From Paramecium tetraurelia (lineage: Eukaryota), in the NCBI GenBank assembly GCA_000165425.1, contig CT868000.1, positions 240,173 through 297,279 on the forward strand: a stretch of 57,107 nt of DNA, written 5' to 3'. Under the pieces are notes generated by a model, which saw only the letters and a program-made list of their open reading frames with translations, made no database searches and was not told the origin of the DNA. Below are positions 9,794-16,994 of the stretch, piece after piece. Numbering within the stretch: the stretch's first letter is position 1; the number at the start of each line of letters is the position of its first letter. The position numbers and the translations under genes were made by a program.

Positions 9794-10215
9794 ATGTTTG
9801 TTTGTTGCGGTAAGAAGAAAAAGGATCGTAAACATTTATCCTTAGGGAATCTGCATTAGTTAAATTTAATTTGTTAAGATGGTCTATATTTTGATAAGAC
9901 TCTTAAGATAATAACAGAAAACAATAAGACTAATGTATTTGATTAGTAGTATTTAGGTAAGTGAAATAGTGAATAAGGAATGTAAGTTTTACTGTCCAAT
10001 CTGCTTCAAATATTATGATTGTATGGATATAGATTAAGTTAGGTATGTTATAATCAACCTGCTGTTCGAATTATGTTTGTCATATCTGCGCAGTGTAATC
10101 TTTAAATAATAAAATGTATAATTGTCATTACTGCCGGAATGAACATTGCAAGTACGTGGATGTAGATCCAAACCAATAGTTAAAAGTATATATCGACTCA
10201 CACCATAAATTATGA
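9794..10215 (+). CDS. Small RING-finger protein with N-terminal Cys/basic membrane-anchoring motif
   Basis: MFVCCGKKKK start; CPICFKYY...TCCSNYVCHIC...CHYC RING ligands; TGA at 10213-10215; short intron(s). Confidence 0.8.
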
Positions 10216-10290
10216 AACATTTATAATAATTAACATAAATGAATCAACATGAAAATATTAATATGTTATGATATGTATCTAATGCATTAA

Positions 10291-12011
10291 TCATTCATCA
10301 ATGGATTTTGAGGCATAATTGATTTCACAATTATAGATTGTTTATAAATCCTTGTTGCTGAGGGTATCGATAGAGTTTAATTGTTGATAGAATCTAAAAA
10401 TATAATATGAAGTTTATACTAATCTTATGATTTAGAGTCCTTGATAGCAATTTTTCCTAATTATTTGAATTTGTTTTAAAGGATGCCATTTAAATCGCAA
10501 TGAGTATTTCTGGCATGACCAGATGGGAACATAACGAATTGACTATCCAAATTCTTGCCATCCTTCAACAAGATTTGAACTCTTGTTGGAATACCTTCGG
10601 GATATTTATCATCATATTCCTTTCCTCCATGTTCGAACTCAGTCAAGGCCATGAGTTTCTAAGAATAGATATTGATAGCATACTCTTGTATCCTTATTTC
10701 TAACGGCTGCATGACTGTAATCATATGGTGAAAGGAAGAGAGCTTTCCAGATTTCATTCAAATCATTGGTGCTTGATAAGAGTTAATGGAATGATTTTTC
10801 AGTGAATGCCTTTCTCAACATAGTGCCCAAGATGTAAACCATTGAGTGATCAGCAGATTATCTAGTATGAGGATCTCTTTTAGCTGGGTCTCCAATAATT
10901 CCAAAGGCTGGTTCATAAGCAGTGACTTTAATTTTATCAATGGAGTCAATTGAGTAGTTTTGGACGAATTTGGTGTCCAAAATAAGCTTTTACAATCCTT
11001 CCAAAGCACCAGCAGATTGATGTTCATACAAACCTAATTTGAAATGCATTCCCATCACTGCATAATCATCTCCACCTAATGAGAGAGTAATATCAAAAGG
11101 ACTGTCTCCCTTAGTCTTTTAGAACAATCTGAAAATGGCTTCTGGGTTACGGAAGATATCAGCTGGACCAACAAATCCATTCATTGATCTCTACAAACAT
11201 TTAATGGCTGCTTCAGTAGAAATGGCAGCAGATGCACCCTTAGAATCTGATAATTGATGTCCTGCTCTGATGGCTCTGAATGGGATGTAATGAGCAACAA
11301 ACATACCGATGGCTGATTCAATTTAAGCTGGATTGGCTCCTAACAAAGCTCCGTATGTGCAGATTGATGCAATAGCTCCATGAACAACGTGATCTATACA
11401 ATATTATACGAATATCAATACCAATTTTGTATGTTTTCAATGAGAATACTTCAGCCAATCTTCCTCTGATTTCATCACTCAATACCATAGCCTTAAGTGC
11501 TGTCTTTCCATCAATAGCTGCATTTTGTTGAGCAGCTGCAATAACAACTGGGTAGTAATCATTGTGACCAAATTCACCTGCTCTTCTTGCTGGACTACTA
11601 GCATCATATCCAAACACTGTGCCATTTGAATCCCATTCTCTGACAGCGGCGGAGTTGGCTACGATTGCATTTGTGGCTGGCACCCATAAGTTGCTTCCGA
11701 AAACCTTGGCAAATCCAAGCTTTGGTTTGGAAGCTGCTCCAGTCTTGGCTGCCAATGATTTGGCTTCTTTACTAATGTTTATTCAAGTATTCGTACGCTA
11801 AAATAGTTGGAGCATTTGTTTTCAAAGCTAAAGCACTTAAGCCACAGAATACTGAATCTGTGTGGAAAAGTTTGCATCTCTCGAGCACTTTCACACTTGG
11901 ATTACCATTTTTCATGAATTCAATGGCATACTCTCCTAACTCTCTTGCTTGATTCTTGTTGGCTTTTAAGACAACTTGACTGAAGGCACGACTAATTGTT
12001 TGGGTTAACAT
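10291..12011 (-). CDS. prpD: 2-methylcitrate dehydratase (MmgE/PrpD family), probably mitochondrial
   Basis: ANSAAVREWDSNGT, GEFGHNDYYPVVIAAA, IDHVVHGAI, IRAGHQLSDSKG, KLGLYEHQSA, MFPSGHARN; N-terminal MLTQTISRAFS presequence-like leader; three tiny introns. Confidence 0.9.
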
Positions 12012-12752
12012 AAATATCTTTTTATTTAATGCAAAATTAAACTCAATTTCCATTAATATAGCGCATTAATATGATGGAATTAAATATGACAATTATTCAT
12101 TTTGATCAATTTATTTACGCAATACGCCATAATTAATTTTTATAGTGAGCATTATTTGAAAAATCTTGTTTCTCTTCCCCATCCTCTTTTACTTTCATTT
12201 CCCCAACCATTCCAGCCTAAAAGTTATAGATACGATGCTTGGTTCTACTAATCATATTATAAATTTGATATTTAAACTACGTAAAAGTGGTAAAATATAC
12301 TACCAAACTATGTAATCTACAATGTGTAAAGAGTGTGTGTCTAAATCTATCTGAATTTCTTCAAAAAAAAAGAAAAAATAGAAATCCTTATTTATTATGT
12401 AAAAGATGATATAAACTGATAATATGTCCTTTATAAATCTCTATAATTTACAACACAAAATAAAATCCATTTTTAAATGATTATTTATTAGTTTACTATT
12501 GGAAAAAATCATTTATTTTTGAATTAGAATTACATCTCTTTTACACGAATAACAGTAAAGTAAACACAGAATAATTGCAATATAATTGCTATTCTAATTA
12601 TCCTTACGCAATAATTAATATTGGATTACATAGATATATCATAACCCTTAACAATTTTTAGATTTTAAACTCTGTATATTTTTTTATTCATTATTATAAT
12701 AATATTTGATTATTATAATATTTAGTTTCACAATAGTATCTTCCTAAAAATT

Positions 12753-13387
12753 TCAAGAAAGATTCAACTACACTTCTATGTATTCATTTCTTGGTACCAT
12801 ATCTATGATGGCTTCTTTCATTCCGTTTGGTAACAATCCACCTGGTTTACCATAGTTCATTTACTCCAGCTTCATTACCACTCGGCATTCTCAAATTAAA
12901 TTTTGATGGGTATGGAATATCAATCCTACTAAGACGTTTTGAATAACCATCTTCCTCTAGGAATACCTAGATTTTTCTCGACTATTGAAAGGCTACCGTT
13001 GGCTGCTTATAATAAATTATCCATTTGAGATGTAGGTACAACAAATAATCCATTTTTTGTTCCAATGTGATCTCTTCCATATTTATCTAAAATTGCAGTG
13101 ACAATTATAAATGAAGCTCCATTATGAAAAGTTTTCAAATGCTGATCAATATAATCTTAATTCAAAACTACTTATGGTTCCGGTCTGAATCCTTTAGGTA
13201 TATTGAGGATTAACTCTTCACTCCAACCTAAATTATAAATTAAGGGTGATTTGCTGCTCTATTTGTTGCGATTAGTATCAATTTCATAGCAAGCCTATCT
13301 GCCATCTATCTTAGAATTGAGATTACATCATACATATTATTAATTAATGAGAGGAAACACTATGAATATAATCCACGTCATTTTCAT
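12753..13387 (-). pseudogene. Bacterial polymorphic-toxin C-terminal-domain-like gene with signal-peptide-like leader; two +1 frameshifts (pseudogene or assembly errors)
   Basis: Reconstructed: MKMTWIIFIVFPLINQQY^IDGRQACY...IPKGFRPEPQVVLNQDYIDQHLKTFHNGAS...YGRDHIGTKNGLFVVPTSQMDNLLQAANGSLSIVEKNLGIPRGRWLFK/RLSRIDIPYPSKFNLRMPSGNEAGVNELW/KPGGLLPNGMKEAIIDMVP. Intron 13310-13333; extra bases at 12937-12940 and 12846-12849. Confidence 0.75.
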
Positions 13388-13620
13388 ATCAATTAATATA
13401 AATATTTAAAATATTTAAATTCATAAAATAGAATATTAAATATATAAAGTAATTATTGATGAAAATTATAAAATCTGTCGGTATCACTAATAAAATTACA
13501 AAGTACATCTTAATTGTTATTTGTTACTAAATGTATAGACAATAAGATTTTGTAAATGTTAATAATATATATATAAGCATAAATTAAAATATAGATATTT
13601 TACTCTAAAGTGTGATAAAT

Positions 13621-15229
13621 ATGTTAATTTTTTGTATATTGATTGAATTTTTTTTGAAGGTGTTGGCAAAAGAGTTTTCGGTTTATAAAAATAATTAATA
13701 TTTGCTTCTCAGTTTGGAATCATATTGGGATCAAACTTAACTTATGAAACTCAATCAGATTAACCCTGCTATATCATAAATTAAAAATTAAAGAATAAGC
13801 AATCATAAGAAATCAATCTAGTACTTGAATTTAATGAGAAGACATTTGCGAATTTTTATGATAATGGGAAATTGAATGGAGATATCAATTTTATAGTTTA
13901 GATGGTACCAATTTCAACTGGTGCAGTTGTATTGAGCAATAAAGGGGAATTAATTTATTTAAAATTAGTAGAGAATTCTTTTCAATTGGCTGATTCAAAG
14001 ATGTTATCTATTACAAAATAAGTATTCCTCAAACCTGTGTATCTGCAATACATCTAGAATTCGAATGATTTGTTGATCCTTACTGAATGGCAAAACTTTG
14101 AAAATCAAATTGGATAAGAGGGCTAATCAATTTTTTGCGAAATTATAAAGATTTATGATGTTTTCTTAACGGAAAATATAAAGAGTGTGGCCATTCTCGA
14201 AGACTTACTATTTGTGGCCTCAGGTGAATAAGGGTTGCATGTCTATTAGGTGAGCAAAAGAGTATTTGAACAGATACAATGCACTGTGGAATTTAAAAAC
14301 ATTACAGATATAAGAGTGGTTTCGGAGAATTCAGTGGACTATATTTTTGCACTTGACTATGAAAAAGGCATCAAAGTAATCACTTTCAATACTAAAACAG
14401 GATTGTTCTACGAAAATAAATCATTAACTAATATACCATATAGAGGGGAGATTATTGATTTGTATTAGGATGTGTTAATGGTTGTTAAAGAGAAGGAAAT
14501 TGATTCTATAATTCATGAATTGCGTATTTAATATGAGACTAATACATGGAGGTTGATCCATTAACATTCAGCATAGAAGTACATTCAAGATATTGAAATG
14601 ACTGAGAATTACGCTATCATTTTAGGGAGAAATGGACACGAAATAATATATCATTCTCTCCCTTCTTATGATATTAAAATTCAGGATAAAATTATTATAC
14701 CTGGATTACAGAAACTCTTTTTTCTTGATAAAACCCAGTCTAATAACATTTAGGTGTTCGGAGTAACAAAACATATGTTCTTCACTACAAGACTATAATT
14801 GTTTCCTCAATTCATTAGTTGTTTCTATAGCAAGGAGGAAAATGAGATAAAGTTTACTTATCATCAGAACTCTACAAAATGTCCTGGGTCAGCTTAAAAT
14901 AAGATTTGCCAATTCAAATAAAATTACACTGTTCAATTTGTTCACCCTATTCTTTTACATCGGAACAATCGATCTATGTGTATATAACATGTCTGATCAT
15001 TGTAGCACTCTTTGTAATAGTTTTGGGTTTTTTGATAAAAGAATTCAACAGATACCAATTTATTGTAAAAAATCATAGCTCGAAAGATCCCTCTGATTAA
15101 TAAAGTGGAAGTAGGGCTCCTCCAACCAATGATATATATGTTCTGAACTCATTTGATAGCCGATTGAAAATTAGTAAAAAATCATATATACCTTCCATTC
15201 ATGTATAAAATGACTAAAAGATTGAATGA
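13621..15229 (+). CDS. Type-I membrane protein (signal peptide, beta-rich ectodomain, one TM), paralog A; contains frameshift(s)
   Basis: MLIFCILIEFFLKVLA signal; ectodomain aligns with paralog B (IPYRGEIIDLY vs IPYPGEILDIY; AIILGRNGHEIIYHSLP vs AIVIGRNGHQILFHSIP). TM YITCLIIVALFVIVLGFLI is in a shifted frame after the T-run at 14953-14956. Confidence 0.7.
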
Positions 15230-15257
15230 AAATATAAAATTAAATATTTTTAATTAT

Positions 15258-16994
15258 ATGTTCATTATTCTTTAACTCTTGGTTTAACAAATCTAATCTG
15301 AATCTATTTAGATTCTAACCAAGCAAGAAGCAATCCTAGATGTCTTTAGTTCATCTGGAATAATCCTCGAATAATAATTAACCAATTCAAGTTTATGTCA
15401 CATCGTTCCTTAATAACTGGTGGCTCACGACATTGACGACAATTCAATAACCTTAATTGAGAGCTACAAGGATGATTTATTTAGTTTAAACTTTGAACTT
15501 GGATCCTTCAATGGAAAAATAGGAAAAATTATCAAATTTGTCTAACTCAACAATGGTGTTCTCGTCTTATAAGATGATGGCCAATTGAAGTATCTAAATT
15601 ACCAAAATAACTCATTTCAACTGAAATCTACCTTCAAATTAGAAATAGAGAAATTTGCATTAGAAGGCAATGTATTCTTGGAATACTTCTATTACTAATC
15701 ATAAGTGTTGTTGATAGCAAACACTTAAACTATTGCCTTAGATATCATCCATGACGAAGATGATTTGTATATCAAATAGTATAAGATTTATGAGTAATGG
15801 CAAATCTCACACATCAATAGCATTGCCACTGTTGGTAATATTATGATTGTGGCTATGGACTCTGGTATAAAGATATTCGAATTTAAAGATCATTTATTAA
15901 ATGAGATTATGATCGAAATTAGCCACATTAACCGTGTTTAGGATGTGAAGATATTTAATAAAAAGAATAATGAACTTTATTACATTTATTTGTTAGATAC
16001 AATCTCAGGAATTAATCAATACATCTTTAACACTGTAACTTAAAAATTGGAGCATAATTCTAAGTTAGGGATTATTCCATATCCAGGAGAAATTCTTGAC
16101 ATCTATGGTGAAATCTTAATGGTTGTGAAGGACAAATATTTGTACGAGATTCGAGTTGATTATTATCGAAATTAATTCACTCTTGTTAAATAGCATCAGT
16201 TGGAAACAGATATCATTGATATAGAATTAACAGAACAATTCGCCATAGTGATTGGCAGAAATGGCCATTAAATTTTGTTTCATTCAATTCCATCCACTTA
16301 TTCTTAATTTGAGTGGATGAATTAATTGGTTATACCGAATTTGAAATAACTGGGAATATTGTCTTTAAATTTAGATCAATAGAACTTAGAACTGAAAGAG
16401 GCCACTTCATCTCACAATATCATTATTGGAATTACGTAACATAAGTTCTTTTTTTCGAAAGTGGAATTGGTAAATATCTTAATTATTCGAATTAGGAGTA
16501 ATCCTTTATTTAATGTTATTCCGATGAAATCACCTCCTAAATTTAATTGAATTATAGTCACAAGGCTACTAGATGTAAGACTAATTTGAAGAGGAACGAA
16601 TGCGATCTAATCAAAAGCTATACAATCTAATTCGTAGAGCCCAAACAGTTTGGAGGTAATAAATAAACTTATTTATTAATAATATTACTTTACATAGTAA
16701 TATTGTTACTATTTATTTTATTTATTGGATCCTTAATATATCTCTATAAGAAATATCAAATTGAACCTAAATAATAGTCGTGTGAACAAACACCTGATGT
16801 AACATAAAATTTGAAAACAGACCATTAAAGCAATTTTCCATAGCCATCGTCGAAAGAGATAGCTCCTGTCTCTAGAGATGACCAAACAACCAATTTCTGA
16901 ATAGCGAGATTAAATGAATCTGTAACTTCGAAGCAAAAGACCCATAACACAAGAAAATGGTGATTTATCTCCAGGACCCTTCGAAATCAGTTGA
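15258..16994 (+). CDS. Type-I membrane protein, paralog B (tandem duplicate)
   Basis: Hydrophobic N-term MFIILQLLVQQI; long beta-rich ectodomain; TM LLIILLYIVILLLFILFIGSLIYLY; introns 16470-16495 and probably 16799-16820. Confidence 0.8.

Follow-up and report, generated by a model that had tools for sequence, protein, structure and literature searches.

A short minus-strand gene was examined in a 57,107-nucleotide (nt) stretch of the macronuclear genome of Paramecium tetraurelia (assembly GCA_000165425.1, contig CT868000.1), referred to below as the window. The gene runs from position 13387 to 12753 and carries a leader, an intron and ciliate-code codons. An earlier sequence-only reading had interpreted it as a bacterial toxin domain domesticated as a secreted ciliate protein, and this interpretation was overall supported.

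The reading frame is opened by an ATG at 13387–13385 (minus strand, as for all features of the gene) with the hydrophobic leader MKMTWIIFIVFPLI, as had been claimed. Exon 1 (13334–13387) consists of 18 codons, two of which are in-frame TAA triplets read as glutamine (Gln), and encodes this leader, which is common to the orthologs from P. pentaurelia and P. sonneborni and, as judged by eye, is predicted to be a signal peptide whose h-region spans about 12 residues. It is followed by a 24-nt GT..AG intron (13310–13333) with an in-frame TGA, seen in the sequence and in read contigs and proposed earlier at the same place; the joined exons give ..PLINQQY followed directly by IDGRQ.., colinear with the orthologs. 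Exon 2 (12753–13309), closed by a TGA stop codon at 12755–12753, encodes at 12756–13243 a domain of about 160 amino acids (aa), which is homologous to bacterial toxin C-termini and predicted to be a nicotinamide adenine dinucleotide (phosphate), NAD(P)+, glycohydrolase with an ADP-ribosyltransferase (ART) fold, similar to SPN and Tne5. The coding sequence (CDS) comprises 202 codons, eight of them in-frame TAA or TAG with the frame pieces counted separately, in agreement with the ciliate Gln codons noted before, and its GC content was 0.325 compared with 0.283 for the window.

In the window version, exon 2 is broken by two extra single bases. The ciliate-code listing of open reading frames (ORFs) gives the gene only as pieces, and the conserved motif string is divided over three frames (frame 0 to about 12938, frame 1 at 12936–12850 and frame 2 at 12848–12756). 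All of the motif string reported in the sequence-only reading was present, with the three-frame split merely hinted at there by the mention of a frame-corrected protein. The intact P. pentaurelia ortholog (P0002) matched exon 2 in three frames with 77%, 81% and 94% identity in a tblastn search. The first +1 frameshift arises in a coding-strand AAAA run (12937–12940) and the second from an extra coding-strand T between TGG and AAA (12849). Contigs of four public runs from four studies (X3, X10, X17 and X19) were aligned to positions 12650–13500. Base 12849 was missing in the contigs of all four runs, and one base at 12937, an A of the run, in all three that covered it (X3, X10 and X17), the X19 contig stopping there. 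Besides these two positions, no differences between the run contigs and the window were found over 851 bases. The frame was continuous once both bases were removed, and the orthologs read ..WLFKRLSRIDI.. across 12937 and ..LWKPGG.. across 12849. Because the independent runs lacked both bases and the frame was then continuous, both frameshifts are attributable to reference errors or to differences particular to the sequenced stock or strain and not to decay of the gene. Both shifts come after TAG or TAA, which raised the possibility of a programmed +1 frameshift as in Euplotes; this was excluded because the DNA-like runs also lacked the two bases.

The public P. tetraurelia protein model (P0001) has 132 aa and is 100% identical to a 123-aa translation from the region. 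The model begins within the intron region and ends at the first frameshift, and both of these faults are due to the two single-base differences between the reference and the independent runs.

The 24-nt intron was missing in the contigs of X17 (depth 51) and X19 (depth 4–5), both guessed to be RNA, and retained in the DNA-like runs X3 and X10; the X17 contig ended 6 nt upstream of the ATG. Since the RNA-like contigs lacked the 24 nt and the DNA-like contigs had them, the intron is spliced and the gene is transcribed, the RNA status of X17 and X19 being a guess.

Two intact, colinear orthologs sharing the leader were found, one of 201 aa in P. pentaurelia (P0002, 80% identity) and one of 196 aa in P. 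sonneborni (P0003, 66% identity), and word-based searches returned no ciliate proteins beyond these two and P0001. The features by which domesticated interbacterial toxin genes are recognised as eukaryotic genes were all observed here, namely a spliced intron, transcript contigs, eight Gln codons of the TAA/TAG type and orthologs in three species. A rival reading is that the P. tetraurelia gene is a decaying relic, i.e., a pseudogene with real frameshifts and no present function. Although two +1 corrections were needed in the window and the public model is a 132-aa truncation, as expected of a relic, the four runs from four studies lack the extra bases and are otherwise identical, the transcripts are spliced, the orthologs are intact at 66–80% identity and the domain columns are conserved, which makes decay very improbable.

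Bacterial relatives and their downstream ORFs

The domain showed 41–51% identity to C-terminal domains of bacterial toxins, with E-values down to 1e-45. A search for longer proteins gave 19 bacterial matches of 363–1295 aa (41–49% identity, E from 1.8e-19 to 4.7e-32), and in all 19 the match ended 6–20 residues before the C-terminus. An exhaustive phmmer search of 1.84 billion cluster representatives with P0002 resulted in 1160 matches at E<=1e-3, of which 677 reached E<=1e-10 and 56 reached E<=1e-30. Among the 173 proteins examined, three of them from Paramecium, 161 had the domain at most 25 residues from the C-terminus. Tandem copies (2–4 per protein) were observed in five of the 173 (P0023, P0024, P0025, P0031 and P0114), and the copies of P0023 and P0114 lack the aspartate of alignment column 103 discussed below.

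The domain had been said to lie at the C-terminus of RHS, LXG, WXG and hemagglutinin-type toxins, and these architectures were largely recovered. A scan of 11 bacterial proteins detected WXG100_2 (three above the Pfam cutoff and two below), Fil_haemagg_2 and PT-TG, and a weak, sub-threshold match to LXG. RHS_repeat, DUF6531 and the RHS core were found in five of nine locus ORFs. Among 50 long matches, 13 carried PT-HINT, PT-TG, PT-VENN, PAAR/prePAAR, RHS, WXG100_2 or T7SS_signal, whereas seven had other domains and 30 had none. The WXG100-type protein P0157 (1894 aa) has the domain at an internal position (1270–1404), followed by a papain-fold glutamine deamidase toxin domain, and appears to hold two warheads within one toxin. 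Short forms (<=260 aa) made up 45 of the 173 proteins, and those inspected had N-terminal signal peptides, as in Paramecium. The Paramecium proteins contained no N-terminal delivery or pre-toxin module in Pfam, only the leader and about 40 aa preceding the domain.

The named relatives included Actinomycetota (Mycobacterium, Nocardia), and 25 bacterial loci retrieved with a four-sequence alignment (A3) belonged to Acidobacteriota, Bacteroidota and Alpha-, Beta- and Gammaproteobacteria. A tblastn search of plasmids gave four records, e.g., a Rahnella hemagglutinin-repeat protein, and 4 of 49 family-level genomes around the Gilliamella locus were matched, a sample that did not include the genus in which Tne5 was founded. 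Searched with the three window pieces, the orthologs and relatives, Pfam and NCBIfam contained no family for the domain. The domain has at least 1160 significant relatives, bacterial ones occur at toxin C-termini, and a single narrow eukaryotic clade was found.

The toxin match ended at most 18 codons before the stop codon in 20 of the 25 bacterial loci, the exceptions being L002, L006, L011, L020 and L022. A conserved ORF of 74–86 aa started at or overlapped the toxin stop codon in 15 loci (L001, L003–L009, L012–L017 and L019), and a different downstream ORF of 151–153 aa was present in three others (L021, L023 and L024). Neither type matched a Pfam family. The L003 toxin domain was modelled together with the product of the 74-aa ORF that follows it, and the complex scored 0.93, compared with 0.02 for the best of three controls; 51 of 78 solved complexes and 2 of 108 mismatched pairs attained that mark. 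The runs shared at least 94% of contacts, the partner had a predicted local distance difference test (pLDDT) value of at least 90, and the modelled interface took in conserved cleft residues, including the conserved glutamate. The model supports putative binding between the L003 toxin and its 74-aa partner, and the 74–86 aa ORFs are a candidate for an undescribed immunity family of about 80 aa. A hidden Markov model built from the 15 small ORFs found nothing in the six-frame ciliate-code translation of the whole window, in agreement with the earlier remark that no immunity gene was evident near the Paramecium gene.

Predicted fold and chemistry

The AlphaFold2 model of P0002, based on a 57-sequence alignment, had a pLDDT of 89.3 and a predicted template modelling score (pTM) of 0.80, with block-mean pLDDT values of at least 95 across residues 41–200. 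The top three Foldseek matches were structures of the Streptococcus pyogenes NAD+ glycohydrolase SPN (E from 1.9e-6 to 5.6e-5, probability 1.00), followed by tankyrase and poly(ADP-ribose) polymerase (PARP) domains at E>0.02. Independently of the structure search, the family profile matched the SPN sequence with an E-value of 2.2e-4. As judged from the model, the domain has the ART fold with SPN as its sole strong structural relative, and the ART/NAD-glycohydrolase-like fold hinted at in the sequence-only reading was borne out by both searches. The Pfam NADase family was matched neither by the window pieces nor by any of 57 short family members at E<=10, the same scan giving no TNT or ShK match for these members. 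From these comparisons, the Paramecium domain is a distant relative of SPN and not a member of the SPN/NADase Pfam family. It shares about 17–18% identity with SPN, also known as Nga (PDB 3PNT, 4KT6 and 7WVH), which is longer in the C-terminal third (SPN 233–446 compared with 38–201 of the model). SPN also carries a translocation domain at its N-terminus, with streptolysin O as the route of its injection, whereas in the Paramecium protein the domain is preceded only by the leader and about 40 aa of linker.

According to the available part of PMC6893971, R289 and G330 of SPN are needed for NADase activity and E389/E391 are the glutamates of the ADP-ribosylating toxin turn-turn (ARTT) motif. In the profile alignment an SPN glycine pairs with the near-invariant glycine of LGIP and an SPN arginine falls one column off YGR; the fit to SPN positions 330 and 289 relies on an inferred numbering offset of 183, and the alignment stops before the glutamates. 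The Paramecium domain retains 34 of the 38 columns conserved at 80% or more, including E182, E163, E128, R157 and H74. Of 199 non-Paramecium domains, 194 share the glutamate at 182, which begins a strand after the Gly-rich W.PGG loop in the modelled secondary structure. Glu182 is a candidate catalytic residue, placed by the model at the position of the catalytic glutamate of ART enzymes.

The domain had been called uncharacterised in the sequence-only reading, which is probably outdated, as the accessible text of PMC13285283 (2026) describes Tne5 with the same best structural match and the same spread of architectures. In that text, Tne5 forms the C-terminus of an Rhs toxin from Pluralibacter gergoviae, and its toxicity in E. 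coli is counteracted by the small protein encoded downstream; the domain converts NAD(P)+ to nicotinamide and ADP-ribose, protein ADP-ribosylation was not detected, and Tne5-like ShK fusions are described, with no mention of ciliates in the part available (PMC13285283). Tne5 is likely to be a sister family of the Paramecium domain. The location at the C-terminus of PAAR, Rhs, contact-dependent inhibition (CDI) and type VII secretion system (T7SS) toxins together with a small immunity gene, a feature of Tne5, was found in the bacterial homologs, with an immunity-like ORF in 15 of 25 loci, and not in the Paramecium gene, whose stand-alone, predicted secreted product, unlike Tne5, lacks Rhs and ShK modules. 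The TNT-like NADases (Tse6/Tne1, Tne2, Tne3/4 and M. tuberculosis TNT) are likewise NAD(P)+-depleting domains at the C-termini of polymorphic toxins. Secreted or surface homologs in fungi (AfNADase) set a precedent for an extracellular NADase of bacterial-toxin type in a eukaryote, as presented in the available text of PMC10539506.

Origin of the gene and rival readings

Trees were built with FastTree on 201 domain rows and with IQ-TREE in a quick and a careful run on 61 rows each; the IQ-TREE trees were unrooted. The truncated P0001 and three loci with a stop inside the crude ORF extension (L018, L022 and L025) were omitted, and L020, a long branch, was left out of the 61-row trees only. The Paramecium pair came out as a single clade (100/99) within the bacterial family, its stem measuring about 0.76 changes per site. 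In the FastTree tree the pair grouped weakly (67–86) with short signal-peptide forms, including those of Microscillaceae and Cytophagales, and in the quick IQ-TREE run it fell in a polytomy. The careful run gave P0025 as its sister at 79/63; this protein of 2241 aa combines a leader of bacterial type and an HExxH motif with three copies of the domain in tandem. Another grouping among the trees, with P0030, P0094 and P0035, had a support of 43. The direction of transfer was probably from a bacterium to a ciliate, because one narrow eukaryotic clade stands against a family spread across at least four bacterial phyla. Horizontal acquisition from bacteria, as suggested earlier, fits a nuclear gene that carries an intron, has orthologs in three species and lies within a bacterial family with at least 1160 cluster representatives.

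The identity of up to 51% to bacterial proteins and the lack of a root in the trees would also be compatible with mis-assembled bacterial DNA or with the acquisition of a eukaryotic gene by bacteria, although there is hardly any room for either. Contamination was excluded because of the spliced ciliate-type intron, the genetic code with its eight TAA/TAG sense codons, the composition (32.5% GC) and the DNA contigs of 2.3–2.7 kb in independent runs, which cover the gene together with its flanks and contradict such an origin; the neighbouring genes are also of Paramecium type and multi-exon. A transfer to bacteria is opposed by the single narrow eukaryotic clade among at least 1160 representatives, by named relatives that were all bacterial (Acidobacteriota, Bacteroidota, Pseudomonadota and Actinomycetota) and by the closest Atlas clusters, which were 100% Bacteria.

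The data are best explained by a functional, transcribed nuclear gene of the P. aurelia complex for a secretory-pathway NADase of the SPN/Tne5 type, about 202 aa long and donated by a bacterium, a reading to which a probability of about 0.78 was assigned. From its N-terminus, the protein would comprise a signal peptide, a short linker and a single domain with the ART fold. In bacteria the domain would serve as the C-terminal warhead of polymorphic toxins delivered through type V secretion (T5SS)/CDI, type VI secretion (T6SS) or T7SS, and also as a short signal-peptide protein, usually accompanied by a small immunity gene. The donation would predate the split of P. tetraurelia, P. pentaurelia and P. 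sonneborni, and after the transfer the gene would have gained its intron, ciliate Gln codons and AT-rich composition. The enzyme is expected to cleave NAD+ or NADP+ into nicotinamide and ADP-ribose. Co-translational import into the endoplasmic reticulum would shield cytosolic NAD, so that an immunity protein would be dispensable, and the site of action may be the food vacuoles or the medium, with the NAD(P) of ingested or neighbouring cells as the substrate.

Several points weigh against this explanation. The RNA label of X17 and X19 was guessed and X19 is shallow, the signal peptide was assigned by eye as a prediction, and if the frameshifts were real in the sequenced strain, the gene would be a pseudogene in that strain. 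The tree groupings conflict and lack support, and no donor lineage is claimed. The link between Tne5 and the present family is one of structural match and architecture. The mapping to R289, G330 and E389/E391 of SPN is partly covered and hangs on the inferred offset. In addition, four conserved columns differ in Paramecium: column 65 has I or V instead of the tyrosine of 190 of 199 domains, column 103 has N instead of the aspartate of 188 of 199, Leu66 is replaced by M and Ala166 by V or I. These four differences could have lowered or changed the activity.

In a further reading, to which a small share of the probability was given, the fold would have been kept and the activity changed to that of an ADP-ribosyltransferase, an ADP-ribosyl cyclase or a non-catalytic secreted protein binding NAD or ADP-ribose. 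The four substitutions leave room for such a change, whereas 34 of the 38 conserved columns, with Glu182 among them, are retained, and SPN is a glycohydrolase, as is the likely sister family Tne5, for which no protein ADP-ribosylation was detected in the available text of PMC13285283. The D103N replacement is moreover shared with one bacterial member, L005 of Microscillaceae, which keeps an immunity ORF. The conservation suggests that NAD(P)+ glycohydrolase activity is likely, but not securely, retained in the Paramecium protein.

As for the surroundings of the gene, its downstream neighbour (10128–12194, minus strand) is a multi-exon gene of the MmgE/PrpD family (PF03972, E 1.6e-11; PF19305, E 1.5e-7), located in the part of the window with the highest GC content (0.359 at 10–12 kb). 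Two plus-strand genes at 13647–14996 and 15168–16547 are adjacent paralogs with 32% identity over 316 aa (E 5e-48), and neither was assigned to a Pfam family.

Possible role and meaning

The preferred reading of a donated secretory-pathway NADase can be taken one step further. Paramecium may have acquired a complete bacterial gene for a short secreted NADase toxin, possibly already with a Sec-type leader, and the enzyme would now be used within food vacuoles or in the surrounding medium as a NAD(P)-depleting weapon against ingested bacteria, intracellular invaders or competitors. This extension is put forward tentatively and was rated well below even odds; the Paramecium leader aligns with those of the short forms from Bacteroidota, with which FastTree groups the pair weakly.

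A parallel is provided by the dae genes of ticks and other eukaryotes, which derive from T6SS Tae toxins, acquired the structure of eukaryotic genes together with a signal peptide and no longer have the immunity partner. The dae enzyme is a peptidoglycan amidase, and an antibacterial role was demonstrated for dae2. The present gene differs in the enzyme (NADase instead of amidase) and in the host group, and an antibacterial role of the Paramecium gene is a hypothesis. The transfer of interbacterial toxin domains into eukaryotes is already known, with the dae genes and the Tne5-like ShK fusions mentioned above as examples, and the present gene is well supported as a further, experimentally tractable case of moderate surprise. 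In a search of the literature on toxin-derived genes of Paramecium and other ciliates, none of the papers listed dealt with this gene or with a toxin-derived NADase of Paramecium.

Bacterivorous ciliates are constantly exposed to bacterial toxin genes, and few conversions of such genes into working ciliate genes are documented. The gene described here is a clean case, with an intron, the ciliate code, expression, presence in three species and an identified fold. A public gene model shortened by two single-base errors was corrected, and a candidate for an undescribed immunity family of the corresponding bacterial toxins was obtained as a by-product. With this gene, the SPN/Tne5-like NADase family, itself newly described, reaches into the protists, and the hypothesis of an NADase acting outside the cell or in the phagosome can be tested directly in a model organism amenable to genetics. 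If its use as a weapon proves true, the gene would be to ciliates what the dae genes are to ticks, with compartmentation taking the place of the immunity protein.
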